A DNA stretch of 64,000 nucleotides, taken from assembly GCA_903851045.1 (NCBI GenBank), contig CAINNF010000023.1:202-64201 (forward strand), written 5' to 3'. The notes under the pieces were generated by a model. The model worked only from the letters and a program-made list of their open reading frames with translations. It ran no database searches and was not told the DNA's origin. A program made the position numbers and the translations under genes. This document shows positions 2,379-61,529 of the stretch, one piece after another (position 1 is the stretch's first letter; every line of letters begins with the position of its first letter). The stretch is from Candidatus Adlerbacteria bacterium. GTDB lineage: Bacteria > Patescibacteriota > Minisyncoccia > Phycocordibacterales > SBAW01.

Positions 2379-3482
2379 ATGCGTGACGCTACCCCTCGAC
2401 CCATCACCGTCGTGATCGTTGGCGGAGACTGGGACACCACTGGCGGGAGAGCCTCGTCATACGTGACACAGTTCGCCGATGCTCTGCGCGACTCAGGTGC
2501 CGTCGTCGCGCTCTACAACGGCGGCACTATCGAACACCTTTCCGGATACATCCTTGAAAAGGGAGTTGCGGGATACCAGGCGATCGTCTGGATCCCGAAC
2601 GTTCCGAACGAGTTCCCCAAGCATCGCCAAGTTAAGCTCGTGCACCCGCATGCACTGCTCGTCGTCGCGAAGCGCAACCAGGACGAATACACCCTGCACG
2701 AGTTGCTCAACCGCGCGTTGGGACTGCATGCGAACCTGTGTATCGACTTCAGGCGAGCACAGGGGCGAATCAGTGCACGACTGCTGGACGTTATGGGAGT
2801 CATCTGGCAAGACCACACGACAGATATCAAACAAATGGCTTCGATGCTTGCGGGACGTTTGGAAGCGCTGCGCGCCGTTACTCGCCAAGGAACCCGACAG
2901 GTGTCGACAACCCCGCTCACCGTCCCCGACCAGCCGACCTTCTTCGACATCGTGCGGCGCTACGCCGGAGTCTTCCACGAACTCATCGTACCGGAGCCGT
3001 CGGTCACTCGTTTCCTCGGGAACGCATCCTTCAGGTGCGAGCGCGGTTTCCCGTCATTTCGAGACGAGACCAATACCGTCTTCGTCTCACGGCGCAACGT
3101 CGACAAGCGCTACATCGACGCTTCGGCCTTCGTCGCGGTCCAACAAGCGGATGATGCGGTGCTCTACTGGGGAGAACACAAACCCTCCGTGGACGCACCC
3201 GTGCAACTGCGACTCTATGATGCGTTGCCGAACATACGCTTCATGCTGCACGCCCACGTCTATCTCGCGGACGCACCGACCACGACGCACGTGCTACCCT
3301 GCGGCGCGCTCGAAGAGGTGGCGGCGGTACTCGCAACGATCCCCGACCGCTCGACGACCAACGTGCACGTCAACCTGCCTGGGCACGGCTGTCTGATCAT
3401 GACCAGCGACCCGACCCAACTCCACGACCTGCCGTTCATCGCACGCGTGCTACCTGAACACCTCACCGTGATGCCCCACTAG
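2379..3482 (+). CDS. two-domain protein with C-terminal class II aldolase/adducin-like domain
   Basis: GGAGGA lies 6 nt before the ATG at 2379 (the 2364 start is an ORF-track artefact). C-terminal motifs KPSVDA, IRFMLHAHVYLA and NLPGHGCLIM resemble FucA PSSE/HNHAVH/HHG. The N-terminal ~200 aa are unassigned. Confidence 0.5.
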   Translation: MRDATPRPITVVIVGGDWDTTGGRASSYVTQFADALRDSGAVVALYNGGTIEHLSGYILEKGVAGYQAIVWIPNVPNEFPKHRQVKLVHPHALLVVAKRNQDEYTLHELLNRALGLHANLCIDFRRAQGRISARLLDVMGVIWQDHTTDIKQMASMLAGRLEALRAVTRQGTRQVSTTPLTVPDQPTFFDIVRRYAGVFHELIVPEPSVTRFLGNASFRCERGFPSFRDETNTVFVSRRNVDKRYIDASAFVAVQQADDAVLYWGEHKPSVDAPVQLRLYDALPNIRFMLHAHVYLADAPTTTHVLPCGALEEVAAVLATIPDRSTTNVHVNLPGHGCLIMTSDPTQLHDLPFIARVLPEHLTVMPH

Positions 3483-5281: not shown

Positions 5282-6019
5282 ATGCTGGTCTACATTGACG
5301 AAACGGGCGACCACAACCTCAACAAGATCGACCCGACGTATCCTCTTTTCGGGCTGGGTGCACTCATGATTTCTGAGGAGGAGTACCAGCGCATGGACGC
5401 TGAAATCTGTGCGATCAAAAAGGAGTTCTTTAACGACGATGGGGCTTTTATCCTCCACTCCTCCGAACTCAAGCGGCCGATCCACGCGAGAAGCGACTCA
5501 AGGAATATAATCATGTCCGACCCTGACACTCGTCGTCGATTTTTCGAAGCGTTCGACACGAGAGTAGTGAGCGCGTTCGACTTTACCATCATCGCCTGTT
5601 TTATCAGAAAACAAGATTTGGTCGAAACTTACGTCCTACCAACCGACTCATATTTCTTTTCGTTCGAAAATATCCTTAACAGGGTCATCAGGTGCGGCAA
5701 CACAACCAACTCGATATATGCAGAACGCCGCGGCGCAGAATTGGATCCGGAATTACTCTCCGAATACGACCGGTTTTGTAAGACTGGCATACGATTCTAC
5801 ACCACTGACGAAGTCATAGCCCGGACGACGTTCAAGCTCGTCAACAAGAAAGAGAACATAAACGGTCTGCAGGTCATCGACCTCCTATTGTCATGCCTCG
5901 CGAGGCACTATCTCGGCAAGACCGAAAAGATGCTCCACAACGACCTTACCCCCGAGCTGGTTATAACAAAATACGCCTGTACCCCAACCTTTTTCCCATA
6001 TAAGAAAAAACCTAGGTAG
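5282..6019 (+). CDS. DUF3800-family protein
   Basis: N-terminal MLVYIDETGD matches the DUF3800 xYIDESG signature. 245 aa. The 3' half is lower in GC. Confidence 0.65.
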   Translation: MLVYIDETGDHNLNKIDPTYPLFGLGALMISEEEYQRMDAEICAIKKEFFNDDGAFILHSSELKRPIHARSDSRNIIMSDPDTRRRFFEAFDTRVVSAFDFTIIACFIRKQDLVETYVLPTDSYFFSFENILNRVIRCGNTTNSIYAERRGAELDPELLSEYDRFCKTGIRFYTTDEVIARTTFKLVNKKENINGLQVIDLLLSCLARHYLGKTEKMLHNDLTPELVITKYACTPTFFPYKKKPR

Positions 6020-6169: not shown

Positions 6170-6838
6170 TTACTTGAATCGGATTATGTCTTGAAATACA
6201 ACAATTGGCCTAGTCTTATCAATCCAATCATTTAGATCTATTACTTTTTCGTACAAAATTCCGTCTTTGTTGACAATAGTCACGCTAGAAATGTCGTAAC
6301 CTTGATCCTCCTCCGTTGGAGAACCCAAAAACCATACTCCGGTGGAAAGATTTTTTGATTGTAGGTAATCAATTAAAGATTTTATGTCATTACCGTCAAT
6401 TTTTCTGTAGGTTGATACAGCAATGCTGTAGGCCTCTAATTTAGGGAGTACGTTTTTTTGCAAAAATTTATCAAAAGTGGACGACCAATTCGTATATTCT
6501 TTAATGTCGAACGGATATGCCCCCATCTTTTCATTTGTTTCTCCAGGTAACCTATATGCGATATAGACGTCATTGTCCGGATTAGTTGGAAACACAAGAT
6601 AGTGTGGATAATTAAAATAATCTTGCAGCGCAACCGCTACAAACATTGCGAAATAACCCTCACGTAAACGCTGATATTTTCGATCTCTGAAAAAAAGATT
6701 TTTATCGGAAGATTTCTCATACTCTTGCAAAGAAATCATGTAAACAGACTCAATTGGCAACAATCTATCTAATGGATAAATCTCTGAAGTGGTCTCAGAA
6801 ATTCTCTTCAAGAAAAAATTGTTGTCCATATTCATCAT
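6170..6838 (-). CDS. hypothetical protein, AT-rich (likely horizontally acquired)
   Basis: Start placed at MMNMDNNFF (ATG 6838), because the 6170..7048 ORF otherwise runs into the ABC-F gene. GC is roughly 35% against about 58% for the flanks. No family recognised. Confidence 0.55.
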   Translation of the reverse strand: MMNMDNNFFLKRISETTSEIYPLDRLLPIESVYMISLQEYEKSSDKNLFFRDRKYQRLREGYFAMFVAVALQDYFNYPHYLVFPTNPDNDVYIAYRLPGETNEKMGAYPFDIKEYTNWSSTFDKFLQKNVLPKLEAYSIAVSTYRKIDGNDIKSLIDYLQSKNLSTGVWFLGSPTEEDQGYDISSVTIVNKDGILYEKVIDLNDWIDKTRPIVVFQDIIRFK

Positions 6839-6845
6839 ATTTGTC

Positions 6846-8270
6846 TCAACGAGGCTGGCGCAACTCCCTTTTCTCCATTCGGTAGAGCTCATCGAGGTGG
6901 GTGTTCTTGATGAGTGCGCGGTCGTGGGAGACGAGGACGACGGTGCCGGTGTAAGACTGGAGGAGTTCTTCGAGCGCGTGGAGGGCATCGAGGTCGAGGT
7001 TATTGGTCGGCTCGTCGAGGACGAGAACGTTGACCGAGCGTGCCGCATAGAGCGCGAGGAGGAGTCGCGCGCGCAGGCCGGGACTCAGGTGATGGATTGG
7101 CTGTGCGCAGAGGCGATATGAGATGCCGAATTTTTTGAGCAGATTGACCGCGAGCGCATCTTTGAGACCCGACTCCGACGCAAGCAGCTCGAGTACCGTG
7201 TCATCTTGTGGGAGCGACTCATACTCTTGGAGCAGGTTGCCGACGCGGCAGTGCGAGCCGCGCGTGACTTCGCCCGAGTCGGGCACAAGTAGGCCAGTGA
7301 GGAGCTTCAGCAGGGTCGACTTGCCCGAGCCGTTCTTGCCGATGATGCCGATGCGCTGGCCGTACGGCACACGCAGCGTGCACGGGCCAACTCCTGCGCT
7401 ACCCGCCGTGCCATCTGCGTTTTTGTATCGATACACCACGTCCACAAGCTCGATACCGAGTGTGCCGCCATCCGCTTTAGGGTCAAGCAGGATAGTCATC
7501 GGCTCACGCTGTGTGGGGCGTTCAAGCTGCTCGATCGCCGCGAGCCGCGAGTTCGTCGCCTTGACCTGCATGGCCGAGCCGCGGGCGCGATCGCGAAAAA
7601 ATCCCTTGGTCAGTTTGTCCTTATCGTTCGGCTCGAACGTGTCGCCGCGCGCCGCATCATCCTTCTTTCGTCGCACCAATTCGGTCAGACGCTCGACCTC
7701 TTCCTGCTGTTCATCATATGTCTTAATATGATACTCGCGCCGTCGTTCCATCTCTGCCAAGTATGCCGAGTAAGTCGCGTTCATCGACTCCAGCGTGCGC
7801 TCTTGTTCATCGAGCGTCCATATCTTGTTCGCGACCGAGTCCAAGAACGCGCGGTCGTGCGACACGAAGACGAACGCCGCATTCGAACTTTTGATCTTGC
7901 GCTCCAGCCATGCGAGTGCGTCTGCGTCGAGGTTATTGGTCGGCTCGTCCAGCAGATACACCTCCGCCTCTTGAGCAAGCGCAGTTTCGAGCATCGTGCG
8001 CCGTGATTCGCCCACACTGTACCGCTCGCTCCCCTCGCGGGAGACGTCGCGCTCCTGCGGCACGAACGACACTCGTACGTTCTTTACATACCGCACCTCG
8101 CCACCGTCAGGCGCGAGCTCTCGGGCGATGATCTGCAAAAAGGTCGACTTCCCCACACCATTCGGCCCGATGAGCGCGATGCGGTCACCTCTCTCGATCG
8201 TGCATGAAATGTCGGAAAGGATCTGGTGCGTCCCGAACGACTTGGATATATGGTTGAGCGACACGAGCAT
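6846..8270 (-). CDS. ABC-F family ATPase (EttA-like translation factor)
   Basis: Two ABC cassettes. Walker A GPNGVGKST and GKNGSGKST. Signatures LSPGLRARLLLA and LSVGESRRTM. No TM domain. Confidence 0.85.
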   Translation of the reverse strand: MLVSLNHISKSFGTHQILSDISCTIERGDRIALIGPNGVGKSTFLQIIARELAPDGGEVRYVKNVRVSFVPQERDVSREGSERYSVGESRRTMLETALAQEAEVYLLDEPTNNLDADALAWLERKIKSSNAAFVFVSHDRAFLDSVANKIWTLDEQERTLESMNATYSAYLAEMERRREYHIKTYDEQQEEVERLTELVRRKKDDAARGDTFEPNDKDKLTKGFFRDRARGSAMQVKATNSRLAAIEQLERPTQREPMTILLDPKADGGTLGIELVDVVYRYKNADGTAGSAGVGPCTLRVPYGQRIGIIGKNGSGKSTLLKLLTGLLVPDSGEVTRGSHCRVGNLLQEYESLPQDDTVLELLASESGLKDALAVNLLKKFGISYRLCAQPIHHLSPGLRARLLLALYAARSVNVLVLDEPTNNLDLDALHALEELLQSYTGTVVLVSHDRALIKNTHLDELYRMEKRELRQPR

Positions 8271-39476: not shown

Positions 39477-39502
39477 CGCCAGCGGCACAAGTGCCGCTGG
39501 CG
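39477..39502 (+). other. perfect GC-rich palindromic hairpin between pncA-like and vWA genes
   Basis: cgccagcggcac-aa-gtgccgctggcg (12 bp). Not followed by a U-tract. Possible processing or attenuation site, or a protein-binding palindrome. Confidence 0.4.
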
Positions 39503-39538
39503 CCTCTCTCCCGAACGAACAATATAGGAGTACGCCTC

Positions 39539-40381
39539 ATGGCCTCTCAAACGGTTAATCCGACCGATATCGCATCGTTCTTCGCTGATCCTGCCGCAAG
39601 CAACGCCATCACCCTGGGCGCCCAGCAAATCGCTGCACCCGTGGTGAGTGGTCAAGCGATCACCTTCGAAGACCTGTCCCAAGGCGGCGGCATTCGGATC
39701 GTGTTCCTTGTCATCGATGCATCTCCTTCGATGGAGCCGGTCGCGGATCTTCTCCGCGACAGCTTTAACAAGGATTTCATCCCTGCGGTCCAGGATGCTC
39801 GCGCCGACGATATCGCAGTACTGCGCATCGGCGGCCTGGCATTCTCGACGAAGATCACGCCAATCTGGCAGAGCGGCGGAAACGGCTTCCATGCTTTGGA
39901 CCAACTTCCCAAGTTGACCAAGGCAGAATACGACCCCGAACAAGGGTGGGGCACCGCACTACACAAGGCGATCCTCACCGGCACCGCAACTGCCGTCAGC
40001 TATGCGGCTCTCCTGCGCGCCCAGATGGGCATCCAACCCGAGGTAGACGTGATCACGTTCACCGACGGTGCCAACAACGAACAGCCTGCAGACCCAGCCG
40101 AGGTTCGCACGGTCATCGTCGGTGGTCGCAGCACTCTCGTGCGACACACGTTCCTGTACTTCCAGACGGACCTGGGAGCAAGGAATCCGCAGAAGATCGG
40201 GCTTGATCTCGGCTATGACGGCGAGAACATCTCGGTCTTCACGAAAAAGCCCAACGAGTCCAGCGAGAGCTATGCGAGCCGCTTCCGTCGCCTGATGCGA
40301 GTCATGAGCCGCGTGTCGGCTTCGCGCGGCGCAAGCGCCACGAACGCAGCCGCTGCCGTCGTGGAAGAAGACGCGGTCTAG
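39539..40381 (+). CDS. von Willebrand factor type A (vWA) domain protein (TerY-like)
   Basis: Start MASQTV (ATG 39539, AGGAG 8 nt upstream). MIDAS DxSxS motif as IDASPSM. FTDGANN. 281 aa. Confidence 0.75.
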   Translation: MASQTVNPTDIASFFADPAASNAITLGAQQIAAPVVSGQAITFEDLSQGGGIRIVFLVIDASPSMEPVADLLRDSFNKDFIPAVQDARADDIAVLRIGGLAFSTKITPIWQSGGNGFHALDQLPKLTKAEYDPEQGWGTALHKAILTGTATAVSYAALLRAQMGIQPEVDVITFTDGANNEQPADPAEVRTVIVGGRSTLVRHTFLYFQTDLGARNPQKIGLDLGYDGENISVFTKKPNESSESYASRFRRLMRVMSRVSASRGASATNAAAAVVEEDAV

Positions 40382-40550
40382 TTCAACATTGCGATGGGTA
40401 TGATCGGCGCTCCGTAAGGAGATGAGTCGAGACACGTTCTACACACTTCGGGGGAGGTCACTGACCTCCCCCTCTTTATAAGGCGCCTGGACCCTTCGGG
40501 CGTCGTTAGAGAAGTTCTTTATCACTCACACAACAACAGGAAACCATCCG

Positions 40551-41909
40551 ATGACCGACTTCGTTGGACGTGTACTGCGACCCGAGCGAGACAACTGGGT
40601 CATCCGGTCGCTCCTCCATATAGACTTCTACAAGTTCACGATGGGACTGTTCATCTACCGATACTTCCGTGGTGTCGAGGTGACGTTTGCGTTCATCAAC
40701 CGTCACCTGCACATTCCGCTCGCACGCATCGTCGATGAAATAGAACTGCGGCGACAGCTTGACCATGCGCGTACGCTCATAATCCAGCATGTGGACCTCT
40801 TCTTCCTGCGGAGCATGGACGTCTTCGGATATCCTATGTTCCCGCCGGACTACCTCGAGTTCCTCATGCAGCTGCGACTCGGCACGTACAAGCTGGAACG
40901 TGTCGGCGACCAATATCGCCTCACATTCACCGGCCCCTGGGAGGTAGTCACCTTTTGGGAAACGATCGCACTGTCGATCATCACCGAGCTCTTCTATCGC
41001 ACACTCATGGAGAGCATGACGGAAACGCAGCTCAACGTACTGTTCGGTCGCATGTACGACAAGCTCTACCGAAAGCTGGAGCGTTTGGCGACAAGACCGT
41101 GGATTCGGTTCGCGGACTTCAGCACTCGGCGACACTTTTCTCGCCTGTGGCAGCGTACCGCCGTTATAATGGCTCGCGAGATGGTCCCGACGCAGTTCAC
41201 AGGTACGAGCAATGCACAACTTGCCCGTGAACTGGACTGCACACCGATCGGCACCTACGCGCACGAACTGCCGATCGTAGTGACCGCGCTCGCTCCCCGG
41301 GCACAGCGAATAACGGCACAATACACGGTGCTACCGCTGTGGGCCAGCTTGTTCCCCAAGGGAGGCTTGCGTATCACTCTGCCGGACACGTACGGGACGA
41401 AGGCATTCTTTAAGCACATGCCGCCCGACTTGGCCGAGCAGGTGGCGCGAGAGTGGCGCGGATTCAGAGATGACTCCGGCGACACTATCGCAAATGGAAG
41501 ACAGTACGTCGGTTGGTATGCGCAATTCGGCATCAACCCAAAGCAAGACGGGAAGATCATGATCCCGTCCGACGGGCTCGATGTTGACCCGATGTTCGCG
41601 ATCGATGATGCTCTTCGCGAACTCATCGGTCTTGCCAACGGCTGGGGAACCAACTTTGGCAACGGCATCGAAGGATGCCATCCTCGACCCGACGACGAAG
41701 CGGTGGTGCGTGGCGAGAAGCTCGGCATCAGCAATGATGTACTCTTCCGTGGTCACTCGTTCATCTGCAAGCCTGCGTTCGCGAACAACAACCCGTGCGT
41801 CAAGATCTCCAACAATCCCAACAAGGCAACGGGCGACAGCTATGCTGTAGCCGAGTACACAAAGGACTTCGGTACGGAAGGCCACGTCGCGCAAGACGTG
41901 CTCGTGTAA
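40551..41909 (+). CDS. pncB: nicotinate phosphoribosyltransferase family protein
   Basis: 452 aa. N-terminal LHIDFYKFTM resembles the NAPRTase TDxYKxTM motif. Size and composition are typical of the PncB family. Confidence 0.65.
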   Translation: MTDFVGRVLRPERDNWVIRSLLHIDFYKFTMGLFIYRYFRGVEVTFAFINRHLHIPLARIVDEIELRRQLDHARTLIIQHVDLFFLRSMDVFGYPMFPPDYLEFLMQLRLGTYKLERVGDQYRLTFTGPWEVVTFWETIALSIITELFYRTLMESMTETQLNVLFGRMYDKLYRKLERLATRPWIRFADFSTRRHFSRLWQRTAVIMAREMVPTQFTGTSNAQLARELDCTPIGTYAHELPIVVTALAPRAQRITAQYTVLPLWASLFPKGGLRITLPDTYGTKAFFKHMPPDLAEQVAREWRGFRDDSGDTIANGRQYVGWYAQFGINPKQDGKIMIPSDGLDVDPMFAIDDALRELIGLANGWGTNFGNGIEGCHPRPDDEAVVRGEKLGISNDVLFRGHSFICKPAFANNNPCVKISNNPNKATGDSYAVAEYTKDFGTEGHVAQDVLV

Positions 41910-45178: not shown

Positions 45179-45264
45179 GGAGAGATGGATGAGTGGTTTA
45201 AATCAACAGTTTACTAAACTGTCGGCCCGTCAAGGGCCCGCGAGTTCGAATCTCGCTCTCTCCG
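45179..45264 (+). tRNA. type II (Ser-like) tRNA with apparent anticodon ACT
   Basis: GGAGAGA acceptor, D stem GAT/ATC, anticodon arm ACAGT-TTACTAA-ACTGT, variable arm GGCCC-GTCAA-GGGCC, T arm GCGAG-TTCGAAT-CTCGC. The loop differs from the Ser-GCT loop (CTGCTAA) by G34 to A. Confidence 0.7.
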
Positions 45265-45307
45265 CAGGAACGTGCATGGTGTTATCTAACCGTGTCCCGT
45301 TACAACC

Positions 45308-52498: not shown

Positions 52499-53019
52499 GA
52501 CTCGGGTTCGAGCAGCACTTTCAATTTCTTTAATCCTCGGTGGATGCGCACGGACACGACGTTCTCGCTCTCGTCCAACACCACGGATATCTCCTGGGGA
52601 CTCATACCCTCGACATATCGCAGCAGCAACACTTCGCGGTAGAGGTCGGGTAGTTCGGCCAACACCTGGAGCACCCGCTTCCCTTCGAAACGCTCGACGG
52701 CCGCCTCGAACGTGTTGGTGTCATCGGTCGGGAGCAGTCGCTCCACCGACTCGTCCTCGGCCAGCATCATACCTTCGAGCGACACGGTCTTGTGTTTGCG
52801 ATACTCGTCGATGATGAGGTGCCGGAGCGTCCGAAACAGGAATGGTCGGTACTCGCGGACCTCGTTGCCTCTCGCGACATACTCCCACACGCGCATGAAC
52901 GTCTCCTGGACCAACTCGACCGCGCGTTCGCGCTCTGGTAGCCGAAGCGAGGCGTGTCGAAAGAGCTCGTCGGTATGGGCTTCGAACGCTTGTTCAAATT
53001 CTTTATTCGTATCTGTCAT
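52495..53019 (-). CDS. RNA polymerase sigma-70 factor, ECF subfamily
   Basis: 174 aa. Region 2 (FRTLRHLIIDEYRKHK). Region 4 HTH (LYREVLLLRYVEGMSPQEISVVLDESENVVSVRIHRGLKKL). Confidence 0.8.
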   Translation of the reverse strand: MTDTNKEFEQAFEAHTDELFRHASLRLPERERAVELVQETFMRVWEYVARGNEVREYRPFLFRTLRHLIIDEYRKHKTVSLEGMMLAEDESVERLLPTDDTNTFEAAVERFEGKRVLQVLAELPDLYREVLLLRYVEGMSPQEISVVLDESENVVSVRIHRGLKKLKVLLEPES

Positions 53020-53092
53020 GGTAGACGCAGCAACAAGGCTTTTCTTTCACACCAAAGGTGTGCCGCCCGCCACAGGCCCCCTTACTATACCG

Positions 53093-53115
53093 AAACACAA
53101 AAAATCCCCAAGGGG
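53093..53115 (-). terminator. terminator-like repeat, copy 1
   Basis: On the minus strand CCCCTTGGGG is followed by ATTTTTTGTGTTT. The 23-mer is identical to the copy at 53669..53691. Confidence 0.45.
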
Positions 53116-53229
53116 ATCCTTTGTTCGACGCTGGACACAACCTTTTCGTCCTTTTGGACTCATCAGCTCAAACGCACATTTGAGTAAGGTTGGGAGCTTT
53201 TATAGGCGCTCCCAAACCAGTGGGTGGAA

Positions 53230-53547
53230 TCAAAACCGGTCTCGTCGGGAGTCGGTGAAGAAATACACCCCCACCCGCTTGAATAAATTTATATAGCCAA
53301 TTACCAGGGCGGTGACCGCCGCCGCCGCAAGAACTACGACGGCCCATGACGACAAATAGAGGATCTTCTCTCCCTCGATCGTCGTGGGACGCCCCGCGAA
53401 CCAGTAGTAATGCAGCGAGATGTAGATGTTTTCTACCACTCGCGGCGCGACGGTCTGGCAGAAAGGCACAGCGAAGCAGACCATGATGACGATAAAAAAT
53501 ACCCACTCAAAGAAATACTTTTCAAAGAACTTCGTCAAGGTCCGCAC
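53230..53547 (-). CDS. small hypothetical membrane protein (2 TM)
   Basis: 105-aa ORF. Terminator repeat roughly 115 nt downstream. Confidence 0.4.
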   Translation of the reverse strand: MRTLTKFFEKYFFEWVFFIVIMVCFAVPFCQTVAPRVVENIYISLHYYWFAGRPTTIEGEKILYLSSWAVVVLAAAAVTALVIGYINLFKRVGVYFFTDSRRDRF

Positions 53548-53668
53548 TTCAACCTCCTTTCGTTGCAGTCACCGTGTTTTGGTGACCTTGATACGTGCAG
53601 AGAGAAGCCCTGCACTCCTCTAGGATATAGGTATCGGAGACACTTGTCAAGTAATAAGAAATGTTGTA

Positions 53669-53691
53669 AAACACAAAAAATCCCCAAGGGG
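53669..53691 (-). terminator. terminator-like repeat, copy 2
   Basis: Same 23-nt sequence as 53093..53115. Confidence 0.45.
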
Positions 53692-53836
53692 CCACAGATC
53701 ATCGACAGCGCTTAGAGGAGAGAGATTTACCCGGGCCGAAGCCTCGGTATCTTACTCACGCTGTGTCTGATCTGAAGCCCTTCAGGGACTTCTGTCATAT
53801 TCCGCACCATCAGGACTCCTCTCGAGAATCCTGTAC

Positions 53837-53936
53837 CAGGGAGCTATCCCCTCTTGAATCCATCATTCGACCTTGCTCATGGCACATGAGTCGTCAAATG
53901 GTGTGCTCAAGAGAGGGCACCGACACGAGGGTCGAT
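53837..53936. repeat. ~100-nt repeat unit A (internal imperfect inverted repeat + GC hairpin + CCAAGTTTG)
   Basis: About 75% identical to unit B (56827..56931) in the same orientation. Arms cctcttgaatccatcattcgac and gtcgtcaaatggtgtgctcaagagagg are inverted copies. The flanking hairpin differs between units but remains a hairpin. Confidence 0.6.
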
Positions 53937-53963
53937 GCCAAGTTTGTACGCACGAAAGAACTT

Positions 53964-54710
53964 TTACATGATCTTGAACTTCTGCGGCTTCTCCTTCCGC
54001 CGCCACTTCCAGCTGCGGTGGGGCTGGCGCGCGTAGTCGTCCTTTTTTTCCCCGGAAGAGTGATCACGCGACCCACCCCACTGCGGAGCGACTGGCACCG
54101 ACCACTCATCATCTTCTCCCGCCCCATACCACGGGTGGAAAAAGTCGAAGTGGTCGTCGCGGATCTCCAGTATCGCGCCGTTGTCGTCGCCTGAGGCATA
54201 TTGTTTGCCCACAGGCAACACTTCCTCGGCGTACGACAAGTCGTCGTCAAGGAAGTCGTCCGGGTCGCCCAGCAGCTCCTCCTCGGGCGCCGGGTCGAAT
54301 TTCACAGGACGGTCCATATCCTCGAGTGCCTGGGCGATCGCCCAGGGCCGGCACGAAGACCGCGGCCAGCGCCACTTGTAGTCCCGCCGGTTCTTCCAGC
54401 AGCGGAAGTCCCGACGACGATTATGGGGGATTCGATCCAACGGGCGCCAAGACAACATGTCGTACACGTCGGACATGTCGTCGTACTCATAGTCTGCCGC
54501 CCGAGCATTTATCCGCTTGCTTTTGACACGGATGCGCAGAGCTTCCCGAAGGTTGCCCAACGCCGTACCGGTCGCAAACGGAATTCCGTTCCGAAGATAG
54601 ACGACCGGGATTTCGCGAGCAAACTCGCGAAGCCTCGCTTCCACTTCACCTGTATTCATCACCACCGAGGTGGCGCGACACTCTTTCAAGCGCAGGGTAT
54701 CCAAAGACAT
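53964..54710 (-). CDS. hypothetical protein (N-terminus paralogous to 55684..56166), acidic/basic-rich C-terminal half
   Basis: Start placed at MSLDTLRL (ATG 54710, GAGGAGGG upstream). Lies downstream of leader-element copy 1. Confidence 0.5.
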   Translation of the reverse strand: MSLDTLRLKECRATSVVMNTGEVEARLREFAREIPVVYLRNGIPFATGTALGNLREALRIRVKSKRINARAADYEYDDMSDVYDMLSWRPLDRIPHNRRRDFRCWKNRRDYKWRWPRSSCRPWAIAQALEDMDRPVKFDPAPEEELLGDPDDFLDDDLSYAEEVLPVGKQYASGDDNGAILEIRDDHFDFFHPWYGAGEDDEWSVPVAPQWGGSRDHSSGEKKDDYARQPHRSWKWRRKEKPQKFKIM

Positions 54711-54750
54711 CCCTCCTCTCGTCAATAGCCAGCCAAAAAAACAAAACTAT

Positions 54751-54825
54751 ATCCGACCACCGCACGAACCGAAGTTCCTGCGGCAGATAAGATAGGCGAG
54801 CACCAGGAATCTCCTGATGCTCGCC
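54751..54825 (-). ncRNA. conserved structured 5'-leader RNA element, copy 1
   Basis: The minus strand has an outer stem GGCGAGCA...UGCUCGCC enclosing a CAGGAGAUUCCUGG hairpin, then AUCUUAUCU, then CCGCAGGAACUUCGGUUCGUGCGG (UUCG-capped hairpin), then a U-run. Lies 40 nt upstream of the ATG at 54710. Confidence 0.55.
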
Positions 54826-55330
54826 GAAGTTTGTGAGGGACTGCCCCTTAGTCCCAGCCTGCAGCCGAATGCTTTCGCACCCGATGACAGTAGCTTCGGC
54901 GCTTGTGCGCGCCGGGCTGGTATCAGAGTTCCATCGTGGGGATTATCGCTGTCATTCTCACCCCCAGATCCTCTTGATGGTTTGGCGAGTTTCATCACTC
55001 GGGAGATCTGCTTCTCCTGGCTCACCACTTCCGCTGGTGACGCGTTGGTTTTATTCTTTTGGCTCATGGAGACTTGTGCGGCTTGTGCGTTGTGACACAG
55101 GGTGCCTCGTACTGATGCGGTGCGAAATCATTCACCCGCGCCTGAGGACAAGGTCCACCGTGTGAAGATACCGCCCTTCGCCTTTGCTCCACTCCCCAAA
55201 CAGGAGACTCTACTCCTGACCCCAGGTTCGGCATGAAGGAATTTCTCATACCTAGGTCATTTATCTAAGCGCCGACCCTGGCGCGTCCTCACAAGCCCAA
55301 CGCAACCTCCTTTCCAATTTCCCTCTCATG

Positions 55331-55408
55331 ATCCAACCACCGCACGAACCGAAGCTCCTGCGGTAGATAAGATGGGCGAGCCAAACAGGAACCTCCTGCT
55401 GCTCGCCC
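55331..55408 (-). ncRNA. conserved structured leader RNA element, copy 2
   Basis: Same architecture. The outer stem has covarying sequence GGGCGAGC/GCUCGCCC. The inner hairpin is CAGGAGGUUCCUG. No convincing ORF lies downstream. Confidence 0.5.
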
Positions 55409-55414
55409 CTTGCT

Positions 55415-55681
55415 TCAATGAACCTTTCGCTTTCTCAATGCCGCCACCTCGACGAGATAGACGCCTTCGGGCTTACACTTCGGGCAGTCGCCCGAGAATG
55501 TGAGCCTGGCGCCAACTGCCCCACTTCGGAGCTCCTGGCCGAGAGCCGTATCGAGACTCTTCGTCATGAACTTCCTTGCGGTCTCTTCCGTTGCCGGGTA
55601 CGAGCCGCAATGTTCACACACGAAGATGAATGTACGTTCGGGGGGTGGAACCCCGGTAACAATCTTTTTTCGCCGAGTCAC
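55415..55681 (-). CDS. small zinc-ribbon protein
   Basis: 88 aa with CEHCG...CPKC. The second gene after leader copy 3. Stop/start spacing to the upstream gene is 2 nt. Confidence 0.45.
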   Translation of the reverse strand: MTRRKKIVTGVPPPERTFIFVCEHCGSYPATEETARKFMTKSLDTALGQELRSGAVGARLTFSGDCPKCKPEGVYLVEVAALRKRKVH

Positions 55682-55683
55682 GA

Positions 55684-56166
55684 CTACCTCCTTCCGGCAT
55701 GCAGAGCCGGGTTACGGTTACGCTGCACCGGCGAGGGCGAGACTTGCGCCCGACCCAGGCGGCGCTCGAACTCTCGAGCAATACGCCGGGCGAGCGCTGG
55801 CAAATCTCCGAGGTCTTCCTCGCAGACCAAGACATCAGCCTTGGTCGCGTCTTTCGCGGTATTTTTGGTGACGTCGATCGTCACCGTAACCCCGTCAAAG
55901 ACGAATACACCATCGACTCCGTGCATATAGTCGAGCACGGAGCCGAGAGCCGAGCGAAACTGAATCGTTTCACCCAGCAGAATCCGCAGCTCCCGTAAAA
56001 TACGGGTTACGGTCGGAGTGCGTATTGGAGGCTGGCGAGCAGTAAGCACCACCTCCATCGCTGCGTCGTACGGCAGATAGTCGCCGCGACGCGCAACGAC
56101 TGCGCATACCCCCAGCACCCTCTCCTCAAAGAGGCCGCCGGTTTCGCCAGTCATACGATTACTCAC
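55684..56166 (-). CDS. hypothetical protein (N-terminus paralogous to 53964..54710)
   Basis: GTG start at 56166 with AAGGAGGAGG upstream. 160 aa. Immediately downstream of leader copy 3. Confidence 0.5.
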   Translation of the reverse strand: MSNRMTGETGGLFEERVLGVCAVVARRGDYLPYDAAMEVVLTARQPPIRTPTVTRILRELRILLGETIQFRSALGSVLDYMHGVDGVFVFDGVTVTIDVTKNTAKDATKADVLVCEEDLGDLPALARRIAREFERRLGRAQVSPSPVQRNRNPALHAGRR

Positions 56167-56194
56167 GGCAACCTCCTCCTTTTTTCTCTATTTG

Positions 56195-56279
56195 ATCCAA
56201 CCACCGCACGAACCGAAGCTCCTGCGGCAGATAAGATGGGCGAGCCAGATCACAGGTACCTCCTGTTCTCCTCTCGCCC
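56195..56279 (-). ncRNA. conserved structured leader RNA element, copy 3
   Basis: Outer stem GGGCGAG/CUCGCCC. Inner hairpin ACAGGAGGUACCUGU. Then AUCUUAUCU. Then CCGCAGGAGCUUCGGUUCGUGCGG. About 25 nt upstream of the RBS of 55684..56166. Confidence 0.55.
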
Positions 56280-56378
56280 TTTTTCTTAAACCTTTCCTTT
56301 ACATCCCCGAACATCGGGGAACTCTGTTGGAAGTACCGCCGACCAAGGCGGACCCCCAACTATTTTAACCAGCGGCCG

Positions 56379-56783
56379 TTAGGCCGCCCGACGAACCTCC
56401 TCCGTTGCGTCGTCCATCAAGTCGGCCGCCGAGTCGGCCAGCCGCTGGGCCTTCAGCTGCGCGGCACGGGCCGCCTTCAGCTCCGTGTAGGCAGAGTCTG
56501 GCGCTTGCCACTCCCGCAACAACTCCAGCGCCTTCGCATGACCAAGCCCCATGGGTCCGATCATGTGGGGGATGTGCGCGAGCAGCAGTTCATTCTTGTG
56601 GGCGTCGTTGGCGCTCTCCAGCGCCTTCATATCGGCGGGGGTCGCCCCGTCCCGCACCAGGATGGCGCGGGCGGCGGCGTAGCCGCACCCCGTCTCCTCG
56701 TTTACCATGGCGCGCAGCTGCGCCTCGGAGAAGTTCCGGTGGGTCGGCAGCTTGGTAACGTTGGTCATCTGAACTCTCCTCAA
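56379..56783 (-). CDS. hypothetical protein (helical, Ala/Leu/Glu-rich)
   Basis: 134-aa ORF. Repeat unit B lies 45-150 nt upstream. Confidence 0.45.
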   Translation of the reverse strand: MRRVQMTNVTKLPTHRNFSEAQLRAMVNEETGCGYAAARAILVRDGATPADMKALESANDAHKNELLLAHIPHMIGPMGLGHAKALELLREWQAPDSAYTELKAARAAQLKAQRLADSAADLMDDATEEVRRAA

Positions 56784-56826
56784 AGGCCACCTCAGTGGCC
56801 GGTTTACCTAACTTAGGGGAACCTTT

Positions 56827-56931
56827 CCCCTCTTGAACCCGCCATTTGACCACATGGCTCGTCATGAGCGAAGTCGAATGATGTTCTCAAGAGAGGAGGT
56901 CAGGGCGCAAGCGCTCCTGACCCCAAGTTTG
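56827..56931. repeat. ~100-nt repeat unit B
   Basis: Same organisation as unit A: cccctcttgaa...catttgacc arm, its inverted partner gtcgaatgatgttctcaagagagg, the hairpin ggtcagg-gcgcaagcgc-tcctgacc, then ccaagtttg. Confidence 0.6.
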
Positions 56932-57629
56932 CCAGTTCAGTAATAGCTATGTTCTGAACTGGGTAGCACAAAGAACTTCATCGGTGCCGCATGACACCAC
57001 CCCTTTCAATCTTCCAATCATCGCACCCGTGCCGATGATCGGGAGATGTTAGAGTAATGGTTTTTTAAAGAGGACCACCCAACCTCTAAGCGAACACCTT
57101 AATACGTGGCGTTCGCCTCACGCGCCTTACAGCGCGCCTTCTCCGGCGTCTCCGCGAAGTGCGGAATCCGATGGGAATCGAGTGCGTAGTAAAGCATATC
57201 CAAGCCCTTTCTAGGCTTGTGCGACCTACTATGCCCACAGGTCGCGGTCGTGGGGGTTGCCACTTACCCTTTGGGGGTCGAAGTGGCGTCAGGGTCAGCA
57301 CCGAAATGCGGACCCTCTTTCCGGCATAATGGCTGCGATGCGACGATGTGGTGCGCTATCGGCTTGGCCATTGTGCTGGAGAAGAGGAACAACATTTTCT
57401 CTATCAGGACGCAAAACTATTCTGCGCCCCGCCCCGTGAGAGCAAAGCTCTTTTACGGGGGTTATTCACTATTCACCTATGGCATCGAGCGACACTGTTT
57501 AGGAGCTTGCTCGAAGGATTCTGTCAAAGACCGCTCTCTCATGGAGAGTGTGGCGTGAGCGAGTGGGCACGCGGCGTATATATGTGCCGGCCGAACTCCC
57601 TCGCGCTAGACTCTCAACGAAAAACGACT

Positions 57630-57663
57630 ACTTCTTTAGGAGAGAAGTAGTCGTTGTCCGCCC
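57630..57663 (-). terminator. strong rho-independent terminator
   Basis: Perfect 12-bp stem acgactacttct / agaagtagtcgt with a 7-nt loop. On the minus strand it is followed by TTTTTCGTT. Confidence 0.65.
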
Positions 57664-57777
57664 ACACGATGGCTGGGCTATAGTAAGTACCGTCAACCCA
57701 TGTCGGGCTTCTGGTGCTTTGTGACTCTCTCCTCTAAAGATGGTCTGTATGAAATTGTGAGGTGCTCGCACTTGAAC
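57630..57777 (-). ncRNA. candidate small RNA (~150 nt) bounded by a near-consensus promoter and a strong terminator
   Basis: No ORF (ATGGGTTGA only). Promoter at 57784..57812. Terminator at 57630..57663. Lies downstream of the malic enzyme gene in an otherwise ORF-free 0.8-kb stretch. Confidence 0.35.
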
Positions 57778-57783
57778 AATATC

Positions 57784-57812
57784 AATATACACCCATGCTT
57801 GACATTTGTCAA
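57784..57812 (-). promoter_or_regulatory. sigma70-type promoter (minus strand)
   Basis: Minus strand reads TTGACA, 17 nt (aatgtcaagcatgggtg), TATATT. Confidence 0.5.
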
Positions 57813-57869
57813 GGGGTCTGTCACTAACAAAGTACCGTGACGAGAAACAGGGCCTACAATAAGGGCTTT

Positions 57870-59081
57870 TTAACGGATCGCTTTGGCAACCGTCTCGGCA
57901 ACACCCTTGTCGAAGGGGCCGGGGATGACCTTGTCTGCCGAAGGCCCTTTCACGAGCGCGGCAAGGTTGCGAGCAGCCCTGAGCTTCATCTCGTCGGTTA
58001 TCTTGGTGACCTTGTGGTCGAGCGCCCCGCGGAATATGCCGGGGAATGCGAGCGAGTTGTTGATCTGGTTGGGGTAGTCGGAGCGTCCGGTCGCTATGAC
58101 CGCCGCACCTCCCCTCTTTGCTTCTTCTGGCGTGATCTCGGGAGTCGGGTTGGCGAGCGCAAAGACGATCGGCTTGTCTGCCATCAATCTGACATGTCCA
58201 GAATGCATGAGCCCTGGGCCAGAGACGCCGATGATAGCGTCGGCCTCGTGCAACGCCTCGTTCAGACCCCCTTCGACGCTCAGCGGGTTGGTGAGCGTGG
58301 CGAGCTCTTGTTTGTGGAGCGTGAGGTCGGTACGCTTTTTGGAAATGATGCCTTTGCTGTCGAGTACGATGATGTCTCGGATACCGGACAGCAAGAGGAG
58401 CTTCGCTATCGCGGTGCCTGCGGCACCGGCACCCGATATGACGACGCGCATCTTCTTGAAGTCGCGTTTGGTGACCTTAGCCGCGTTGATAAGCGCCGCG
58501 AGCGAGACGATAGCGGTGCCATGCTGGTCGTCGTGCATGACCGGGATGTCGAGCGCTGCCTTCACTCGCTCCTCTATCTCGAAGCAGTTGGGCGCCGCGA
58601 AATCTTCGAGATTGATACCGCCGAACGCGGGCGCGATGCGCACGATCGTCTCGACGACCCGGTCGACGTAATTGGCGCCCGCCTGGGTCGACATATCCAG
58701 CACGATCGGGAACGCGTCGACGTCGGCGAACGACTTAAAGAGCGCCGCCTTCCCTTCCATCACCGGGAGCGCACCATAGGGGCCGATGTTGCCAAGCCCC
58801 AACACGGCGGTGCCGTCGGAGATGACCGCGACCATCCTTTTTTTGATCGTATATTCTTTGGCGGCCTTTCTTTGCTGCTCGACAGGCTGCGGCACGCGCG
58901 CCGTACCCGCGATGAGCGTCGAGACGGCAGCGACACCCGGTGTATACACGAGACTCAGGTCGGCGCGGTTCTTCACTGGTGCCGCTGGCGTGATACGGAT
59001 CTTCCCCCCAAGCTTCTTGTGCAGGGCGATAGCCTTCTTGGTAACATCGGGAGCTTTGCTGGTTTTGGTAGTTTTTTTCAT
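57870..59081 (-). CDS. NAD(P)-dependent malic enzyme (short form)
   Basis: Start MKKTTK (ATG 59081). LVYTPGVAAV. Rossmann GAGAAG. About 404 aa, typical of truncated bacterial malic enzymes. Confidence 0.85.
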   Translation of the reverse strand: MKKTTKTSKAPDVTKKAIALHKKLGGKIRITPAAPVKNRADLSLVYTPGVAAVSTLIAGTARVPQPVEQQRKAAKEYTIKKRMVAVISDGTAVLGLGNIGPYGALPVMEGKAALFKSFADVDAFPIVLDMSTQAGANYVDRVVETIVRIAPAFGGINLEDFAAPNCFEIEERVKAALDIPVMHDDQHGTAIVSLAALINAAKVTKRDFKKMRVVISGAGAAGTAIAKLLLLSGIRDIIVLDSKGIISKKRTDLTLHKQELATLTNPLSVEGGLNEALHEADAIIGVSGPGLMHSGHVRLMADKPIVFALANPTPEITPEEAKRGGAAVIATGRSDYPNQINNSLAFPGIFRGALDHKVTKITDEMKLRAARNLAALVKGPSADKVIPGPFDKGVAETVAKAIR

Positions 59082-61415: not shown

Positions 61416-61457
61416 ATTCTGAGCTATAGTGGCTACGAGTTCCCAGCGGGCGCGTAG

Positions 61458-61529
61458 CTCAGCGGTAGAGCCGTCGTCTTATACACGACTGGTCGAAGGT
61501 TCGATCCCTTCCGCGCCCACTTTTTTATC
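61458..61529 (+). tRNA. tRNA-Ile (TAT)
   Basis: GGGCGCG acceptor, D arm GCTC-AGCGGTA-GAGC, anticodon arm GTCGT-CTTATAC-ACGAC (anticodon TAT), T arm GAAGG-TTCGATC-CCTTC, discriminator A. A T-run follows. CCA is not encoded. Confidence 0.8.

Follow-up and report, generated by a model that had tools for sequence, protein, structure and literature searches.

The question raised by this locus is what a short sequence element, repeated in the gaps between small genes, does for the genes that it separates. The locus lies in a 64-kb stretch of a Candidatus Adlerbacteria genome (contig CAINNF010000023.1 of assembly GCA_903851045.1); the whole stretch is called the window, and its positions serve as coordinates. 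The original prediction had described three minus-strand copies as a riboswitch-like, attenuator or protein-binding leader reused for a small gene family. As judged by sequence comparison, the element is a cis-acting intergenic RNA structure module restricted to a sub-clade of Patescibacteria, namely Candidatus Adlerbacteria and relatives. Sequence reading and pattern search returned the three copies as predicted. A filter-free covariance-model search recovered a fourth copy, which the original prediction had missed. The copies in the window are as follows.

54751-54826, minus strand: element copy 1 (pattern search, fold and covariance model R1)
55331-55408, minus strand: element copy 2 (pattern search and fold)
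56195-56279, minus strand: element copy 3 (pattern search and fold)
40450-40512, plus strand: element copy 4, divergent (57 bits with model R2, E ~1e-12)

The 38-nt core ATCTTATCTRCCGCAGGARCTTCGGTTCGTGCGGTGGT gave three matches in the window versus 0 expected (pattern search, 100 shuffles). The UUCG-capped hairpin preceded by AUCUUAUCU was present as described, with GGAAC for GGAGC in copy 1, a change from G.U to A-U that keeps the pair. Copies 1 to 3 each fold into two adjacent hairpins with a minimum free energy (MFE) of -47 to -50 kcal/mol and z values of -4.9 to -8.2. The first hairpin (H1) is GC-rich, comprises 10-15 bp and has a conserved base, GGNGAGC/GCUCNCC. After a gap of 0-1 nt, a second, longer hairpin (H2) follows. 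Its basal helix, P2, comprises 4-7 bp between a conserved U-rich strand, A-Y-Y-U-U-(U)-A-U, and the sequence (U/A)-G-R-G-U; above P2 lie a small internal loop, a helix P3 of 8-11 bp and an apical loop of 4-5 nt. In copy 1, which scored 100.4 bits with model R1, H1 occupies 54825-54795 (GGCGAGCAUCAGGA GAU UCCUGGUGCUCGCC) and the U-rich strand plus H2 occupy 54793-54751 (AUCUUAUCUGCCGCAGGAACUUCGGUUCGUGCGGUGGUCGGAU). H1 of copy 3 contains a longer inner insert. For copy 4 (MFE -41.4, z -5.8), H1 was located at 40450-40472 (GGGGGAGGUC ACU GACCUCCCCC), P2 is formed by UCUUUA (40473-40478) and UAGAGA (40507-40512), and P3 spans 40482-40504. Three details of the predicted architecture had to be revised. 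The outer stems, thought to covary between copies, share GGCGAG/CUCGCC in all three and differ only in the extent of the helix. The inner CAGGAG..CCUG hairpin exists in the three island copies but is missing from the homologous copies of the related loci L095 (UUGGGAAACCCCUGG) and L004 (GGCGGUCGAUGUGCCGCC), and the GGAGG sequence that it was said to bury is not conserved. The U-tract after copy 1 is present but not conserved, being unique to that copy.

Relatives of the locus were reached by look-ups of neighbouring protein families, not by direct scans for the element. Beyond the window, four related metagenomic lineages contributed seven further distinct copies. Two of these relatives, L004 and L095, are syntenic with the window and have one copy each. 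The copy of L004 is flanked by a Zn-ribbon gene and a gene for a 116-aa homolog of the 249-aa protein encoded after copy 1; the neighbours of the L095 copy encode a 112-aa homolog of a 129-aa protein and a 145-aa homolog of the 249-aa protein. L100 and L103 are contigs that encode members of the family of the 160-aa protein whose gene follows copy 3. Models R1 and R2 detected three copies in the former (5647-5727, 6279-6358 and 8110-8190) and two in the latter (890-963 and 1831-1902).

In the alignment of the 11 distinct copies (A12), 94.5% of the cells were paired and 25 of 29 pairs had changed on both sides, so the covariation that the original prediction expected in relatives was present. 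These pairing values were reached by none of 500 shuffles, and slid controls were ~40% paired. RNAalifold independently returned the same fold, with compensatory changes in 24 of 28 pairs. Inside the window alone, one pair was altered on both sides (U.G to G.U). The sense strand folded 5-19 kcal/mol more stably than the antisense strand (-48.4 versus -35.3 kcal/mol for copy 1), since several of the conserved G.U pairs are A.C in the latter.

Sequence constraint was assessed against 4-fold degenerate sites. Between the window and L095, 51-56% of these sites are identical, whereas the linker and H2 of copy 3 are identical to the L095 copy at 43 of 43 positions. For L004, with 35-48% identity at 4-fold sites (near saturation), the linker and H2 agree at 33 of 43 positions, and the differences fall mostly in the apical stem-loop. 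Identity of linker and H2 despite diverged synonymous sites therefore indicates constraint on the element. The conserved nucleotides sit within the helices and the U-rich strand, with no junction pocket.

When five contexts were folded, both hairpins formed autonomously, and the Shine-Dalgarno sequence (SD) and start codon were left unpaired. No competing terminator/antiterminator or SD-sequestering fold was found in these five contexts, which speaks against the riboswitch-like or attenuator mechanism first proposed. Over the whole window, only four tRNAs reached the gathering score in Rfam 15, and no Rfam match at E <= 5 over 53000-57900 overlapped any copy. The element is thus a structured RNA-level motif, previously undescribed and without an Rfam family, with good comparative support. 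The idea of a structured RNA outside the known classes was borne out by the lack of an Rfam match, by the sense strand and by the position upstream of an SD; the riboswitch and gene-family role attached to it was not.

Several candidate explanations of the conservation were tried and rejected. A protein-coding reading was discarded because the nucleotides are conserved while the amino acids are not: the open frame gives PSYLPQELRFVRWLD in the window copies and PTLSTARMCRAVVG in L004. A palindromic double-stranded DNA operator was ruled out by the variable spacer length, the G.U asymmetry and the compensatory changes in the apical stem. A sigma-70 or extracytoplasmic function (ECF) promoter inside the element did not fit in hexamers and spacing; GGAACTT of copy 1 is not conserved, and the L004 spacer is 3 nt shorter. 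A mimic of 16S rRNA helix 45 and its 3' tail (CCGYAGG...UGCGGUUGGAUCA) was also rejected; its GGAUCA part is not conserved among the copies, and no small-subunit rRNA match was obtained.

What the RNA does was approached through its position between genes. Copies 1 to 3 lie within a variable island of ~4 kb composed of small orphan genes, between a malic-enzyme gene and a sigma operon and downstream of a promoter. The features that bear on this arrangement are the following.

53964-54713, minus strand: 249-aa open reading frame (ORF) that follows copy 1, of a family with the basic motif RxWKxRRDxKW
54827-55330, minus strand: apparently non-coding spacer of ~500 nt between copies 2 and 1
55415-55681, minus strand: 88-aa CxxC...CxxC Zn-ribbon ORF directly upstream of copy 2
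55684-56166, minus strand: 160-aa ORF downstream of copy 3
57784-57812, minus strand: sigma-70-type promoter TTGACA-17-TATATT, conserved in L015, which probably drives the island

Copies 1 and 3 had been placed 25-40 nt upstream of genes with strong SD sequences, and distances of 37 nt (copy 1 to the ATG at 54713) and 28 nt (copy 3 to the GTG at 56166) were measured. These two genes are not paralogs as had been supposed (BLASTP E = 2.3 for the 249-aa versus the 160-aa ORF). Copy 2 begins 5-6 nt past the stop codon of the Zn-ribbon ORF and is followed only by an SD, a TTG, two codons and a stop. This looks like a vestigial gene start similar to that of the 160-aa gene, SD included. Copy 2 is positionally orthologous to the single copy of L004, which shares the order of Zn-ribbon gene and then element. 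Copy 4 is placed between a vWA-like ORF (39491-40381) and the NAPRTase gene, which was identified by a Pfam match and starts at 40551.

All 11 copies are in sense orientation and co-oriented with both flanking genes. The distance from element end to next start codon was 19-38 nt in nine of ten cases, and the distance from the upstream stop codon to the element varied from 2 to about 100 nt. Since array and operon ends in these genomes carry canonical hairpins with at least five consecutive U, the element does not appear to be their standard terminator. The genes downstream of the copies encode members of the 249-aa and 160-aa families, a 168-aa protein, a 565-aa AAA-like protein, an HD-domain protein and NAPRTase. 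Because they are unrelated, and because one copy separates vWA-like and NAPRTase genes of housekeeping type, a generic function is indicated rather than the gene-specific leader for a small family that had been envisaged. Orientation, start-codon spacing, the separate terminators and a second type of intergenic module (B-type, below) point to a generic cis-acting cistron-boundary module of the mRNA, which may act as exonuclease barrier, processing site and possibly leaky terminator. We favor this reading tentatively, at somewhat less than an even chance.

As a cistron-boundary module, the very stable double hairpin, probably coaxially stacked, would insulate adjacent cistrons. A block to 3'->5' exonucleases would protect the upstream cistron, and a block to a 5'->3' exonuclease the downstream one. 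The element probably also supplies a recognition site for an endoribonuclease, with RNase III acting on the 16-18 bp helix of P2 and P3, or a cut of the RNase Y/E type beside the hairpins, as candidates. H1 and the U-rich strand may contribute leaky intrinsic termination.

The RNase III signals in the early region of phage T7 (R0.3, R0.5, R1.1 and others) offer a precedent, in which cleavage leaves protective hairpins at the mRNA ends. Like the element, they are related, irregular hairpins with internal loops, repeated between co-directional cistrons after strong promoters and lying a short distance upstream of the next ribosome-binding site. However, the element has no similarity to them in sequence or at the covariance-model level, consists of two adjacent hairpins with a conserved U-rich strand, is chromosomal in Patescibacteria and occurs also beside housekeeping genes. 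Together P2 and P3 amount to 16-18 bp interrupted by an internal loop and possibly stacked coaxially on H1, shorter than the 20-22 bp of a classical RNase III site. In proteobacteria, repetitive extragenic palindromic sequences and bacterial interspersed mosaic elements (REP/BIME), enterobacterial repetitive intergenic consensus (ERIC) sequences and Correia repeats serve as exonuclease barriers or RNase targets and modulate segmental mRNA stability. They are, like the element, short, structured, multi-copy and intergenic within operons. These repeats are scattered in either orientation, in tens to hundreds of copies, and have DNA-level mobility through REP-associated tyrosine transposases (RAYT) or terminal inverted repeats; the element has four copies in 64 kb, all sense, no linked transposase and strong helix covariation.

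Some observations weigh against the cistron-boundary reading. The 5' strand of P2 is always pyrimidine- or U-rich and never flips, which is not explained by pairing alone; termination, or recognition by a protein or RNase, could thus be the primary function. Conservation of the H1 base and of P2 and P3 in the island lineage exceeds what a passive barrier needs and hints at a specific binding partner. The 11-copy alignment was fitted to the model and hence is biased towards structure. Several of the copies are recent duplicates, so that the independent events number fewer than 11.

Other readings were weighed in the order leaky terminator, protein-binding operator, DNA-level recombination element and riboswitch or ribozyme. 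The element could primarily be a leaky terminator or attenuator, with H1 as the terminator hairpin and AYYUUAU as a weak U-tract, which would reduce transcription into the next cistron; H2 would then only mop up the U-tract in read-through RNA or form a second, tandem terminator hairpin. Intrinsic terminators, including predicted tandem-hairpin ones, share with the element a GC-rich hairpin followed directly by a U-enriched strand, the second hairpin and the position after a stop codon. A terminator scan flagged H1 of copy 1 plus UAUCUUAUCU (14-bp stem, tail TATCTTATCT). The tails contain 3-5 U in 9 nt (mostly 4-5) in a genome of 56% GC, the strand bias of P2 holds in 11 of 11 copies, and the element starts 2-30 nt past the upstream stop codon in six copies. 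However, the U-tracts are interrupted and paired in P2 with a downstream purine strand, with covariation, while canonical terminators of the same loci have at least five consecutive U. All copies are internal to co-directional arrays and none lies at an array end. A terminator needs neither the tight spacing to the next start codon nor the covariation of P2 and P3, and the stretch from the element to the following gene contains no promoter-like site. We consider a primarily terminating role unlikely.

A likeness to boxB-boxA of nut sites and rrn leaders was also noted: a variable hairpin is followed directly by a conserved CUCUUUA/CUUUAU-like motif, most clearly at 40450 (CCCUCUUUAUAA). BoxA must be single-stranded to bind NusB/S10. 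In the element, by contrast, the CUUUAU motif is the 5' strand of P2, and three of four of the motif's pairs change on both sides. The full boxA consensus (GCUCUUUAACAA-like) is absent from the element.

As a protein-binding leader, the element would be a translational or stability operator in which a trans-acting RNA-binding protein reads the conserved H2 base and internal loop and controls the downstream gene; one candidate binder is the W/K/R-rich, basic protein encoded by the 249-aa family. The island lineages show strong conservation of the linker and lower H2 although synonymous sites are saturated, G.U pairs are conserved, the distance to the SD is fixed, and the element precedes the 249/145/116/141-aa family in four lineages. 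However, the H2 helices of the distant copies covary freely, with only the U-rich strand and GRG constant, and the downstream genes are otherwise unrelated, NAPRTase included. AlphaFold models of candidate proteins were uninformative, with predicted local distance difference test (pLDDT) values of 39 and 48. On balance, control of the next gene by such a protein appears distinctly improbable.

The distribution of the element and the structure of the island bear on a role at the DNA level. The same sequence was also found in the metagenome-assembled genome GCA_903945565.1 and in lake metagenome assemblies. L015, the closest relative in the genome collection, has a much shorter island without the element. 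With the first covariance model, 0 copies were detected among 80 loci located by their ECF sigma gene, which represent Candidatus Adlerbacteria and other Paceibacteria. Nearly all of these 80 loci lack the element, as do the more distant loci L010, L102 and L107. In L010, a distant Zn-ribbon relative, six CGGTCA repeats occupy the element's intergenic position (1185-1300). Exact-core scans of viral, genome and metagenome collections gave 0 matches, a relaxed gapped pattern gave three chance matches in metagenomes and 0 in viral contigs, and blastn against phages and plasmids gave none. Look-ups of viral loci for the 160-aa and 249-aa families likewise yielded no match. The absence from more distant loci therefore delimits the distribution to a sub-clade of Patescibacteria.

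The island copies sit at the borders of strain-specific indels when the window is compared with L095 and L004. In blastn comparisons, the upstream flank of the L095 copy matched that of copy 3 and its downstream flank that of copy 1; upstream of copy 3, as upstream of the L095 copy, the flank is similar to the 3' end of the Zn-ribbon gene. Given these hybrid flanks, the window therefore holds an extra 1.45 kb made up of two units bounded by the element. The spacer at 54827-55330 is missing from L095 and L004 and, except for a 10-nt match at the SD, has no detectable similarity to the 160-aa or 88-aa genes. On the latter ground, a triplicated unit of 160-aa gene, 88-aa gene and element was rejected. 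In L095 and L004 a single copy occupies the corresponding place, so local duplication or recombination of element-carrying modules, rather than recruitment for one gene family, best explains the three copies of the island.

Such rearrangements might be driven by the element itself if it were a recombination site or mobile-element end (attC-like, a hairpin of the IS200/IS605 type, or a REP or miniature inverted-repeat transposable element, MITE) that shuffles island cassettes. The copies lie exactly at the borders of the indels that separate the window from L004 and from L095, which lacks the 1.45-kb segment from copy 3 to copy 1 and has one hybrid copy instead, and the units are bounded by direct repeats of the element. 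Integron attC sites resemble it in their imperfect hairpin, conserved basal boxes, variable apex and cassette-like boundaries, and a GTTRRRY-like heptamer occurs at the 3' end of H2 in some copies. The R' box fits copies 2, 3, L095 and L004 (GTTGGAT, GTTGGGT), but not copy 1 (GTCGGAT) or the distant copies, which have GATAGAGT or similar sequences. At the R'' position the element has ATCTTAT, and RYYYAAC with its AAC triplet is absent. In contrast to attC, the more stable fold is on the coding strand, and the complementary structure is much weaker since G.U becomes A.C. Neither a tyrosine recombinase nor an integron integrase (IntI) was found among the larger ORFs scanned at 40-64 kb; ORFs at 1-40 kb were not scanned. 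Island proteins gave no transposase-like Pfam, PHROG or PADLOC match and no known family, and all four copies in the 64 kb are sense, so the suspicion that they are remnants of an insertion sequence (IS) or MITE was not upheld. Neither was a phage or plasmid context of the downstream proteins; phage, plasmid and viral collections yielded neither DNA nor protein relatives. Homologous recombination between any repeats would yield the same indel pattern, and we regard a dedicated DNA-level function as very unlikely.

A metabolite-binding riboswitch or new self-cleaving ribozyme, suggested by a conserved, covarying 5' untranslated structure without an Rfam match and by a candidate hammerhead ribozyme 1.6 kb away in the same island, is hardly credible given the lack of a multi-helix junction, of a conserved unpaired pocket, of an alternative expression-platform fold and, on inspection, of conserved loop-linker complementarity for a pseudoknot, and given the functionally unrelated downstream genes.

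A second family of intergenic modules, designated B-type, fills other gaps of the same gene arrays. The window contains two of them.

56817-56934, minus strand: B-type intergenic module, recognized by eye
53839-53946, minus strand: B-type module past the 249-aa ORF, folding as two adjacent hairpins

By eye, the module at 56817-56934 consists of a GC hairpin (GGGGUCAGG...CCUGACCUCC) and then a long imperfect hairpin with the base CUCUCUUGAG...UUCAAGAGGGG; its MFE fold lacks a clean two-hairpin layout, and the element covariance model did not detect it. Members of the family combine a GC hairpin with a downstream hairpin that is long and imperfect and whose base, CCUCUCUUGAG...UUCAAGAGGGG, has a pyrimidine-rich 5' strand and a purine-rich 3' strand. 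Further copies were seen in L004 (about 2275-2350 and 3095-3140), L015 (5630-5680), L095 (about 735-840 and 1900-1975), L100 (4433-4516 and 5011-5110) and L103 (about 1405-1480). Three of four folded copies share the two-hairpin layout of the element. The B-type family appears to be more widely conserved across lineages than the element.

It is conceivable, although we give the idea very little weight, that the element and its B-type sibling are the signal of a dedicated 'punctuation' system of Patescibacteria. In one version, mRNA would be processed at every gene boundary and polycistronic transcripts cut into monocistronic units, by analogy with tRNA punctuation in mitochondria. In the other, integrase-independent, hairpin-guided shuffling of cassettes would build the hypervariable small-gene arrays of these reduced genomes. 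The protein partner might be the 160-aa family, with conserved D/H/D/K residues that could be catalytic, together with the Zn-ribbon protein.

The proteins of the island are largely without annotation. Pfam, PHROGs, PADLOC and NCBIfam returned nothing convincing; the only matches were sub-threshold ones of the 88-aa protein to zinc ribbons and a weak one (E = 0.011) to a PHROG of unknown function. With 302 representatives at E <= 1e-3, the unannotated family of the 160-aa ORF comprises proteins of ~140-170 aa; Pfam, NCBIfam and a profile search of the PDB gave no match. Among its homologs (P0010-P0159), G10, D79, D85 and D98 are invariant and E14, Q45, H82, T100 and K105 nearly so. They belong to a motif, LDxxHGVDG...VTIDVT.N..K...KAD, that could be catalytic. 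Proteins homologous to the 249-aa protein are encoded after the element in three lineages, with 145 aa in L095, 116 aa in L004 and 141 aa in L103; the last has an RYKSWKRHRR motif noted by eye. The wider neighbourhood in the window consists of chromosomal housekeeping genes (malic enzyme, RecG, FtsH, NAPRTase) and the ECF sigma factor with a DUF5667 protein.

Other RNA features were observed nearby. The candidate hammerhead ribozyme, of minimal type III, lies at 53138-53192 on the minus strand, in the intergenic gap that precedes the ECF sigma gene. It comprises stem III (CAACCUU/AAGGUUG), predicted cleavage after UUA (between 53185 and 53184), stem I (CUCAAAU/GUUUGAG), the core CUGAUGA and stem II (GUCC-AAAA-GGAC) followed by GAAA. 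Its MFE fold is exactly the expected three-way junction, and it scored 19.3 bits with Rfam Hammerhead_3 versus a gathering score of 48.5. The exact core had no match in the loci of other lineages except one in L043, which was not examined. Identical 23-bp direct repeats at 53093-53115 and 53669-53691 correspond to the terminator AAACACAAAAAATCCCCAAGGGG. The 576-nt segment between them comprises a sigma-70-like promoter, the hammerhead candidate and an ORF for a 105-aa membrane protein. This segment is missing from L095, where a single repeat is present.

At ~57300-57812 on the minus strand, a strong, conserved promoter precedes a leader of ~400-500 nt conserved at the nucleotide level, with counterparts in L015 (4840-5130), L095 (54-633) and L004 (540-900). 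It contains a terminator-like hairpin at 57655-57623, and its only Rfam match was a weak one to SprD (23.7 bits). Reading frames that differ between lineages suggest a non-coding RNA or leader. At 1900-3100 in L100, inspection by eye showed three promoters of the TTGACA type and, in two copies, a structured repeat several hundred nucleotides long (for example, CCCCACCUCU..GUAGCCG.AAGG..GC...AAAGAGGAGAGAGUGGG). These features lie upstream of the gene array and adjoin Fic and RadC genes; they may be a set of non-coding RNA genes. ARAGORN reported tRNAs with unusual anticodons, tRNA-Ser ACU (besides tRNA-Ser GCU) and tRNA-Ile UAU, at 45179-45265 and 61448-61520, respectively, both on the plus strand.

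Patescibacteria (the candidate phyla radiation, CPR) have tiny genomes with few recognizable regulators, and their post-transcriptional biology is almost unknown. Gene boundaries bear the element in a hypervariable island of small orphan genes as well as next to housekeeping genes. It provides a testable handle on how operon transcripts are processed, stabilized or terminated in these bacteria. By marking indel boundaries between strains, it also bears on the rearrangement of accessory gene arrays. The motif, its covariance model and the 11 seed sequences are suited to RNA family databases and can be checked in lake metatranscriptomes.

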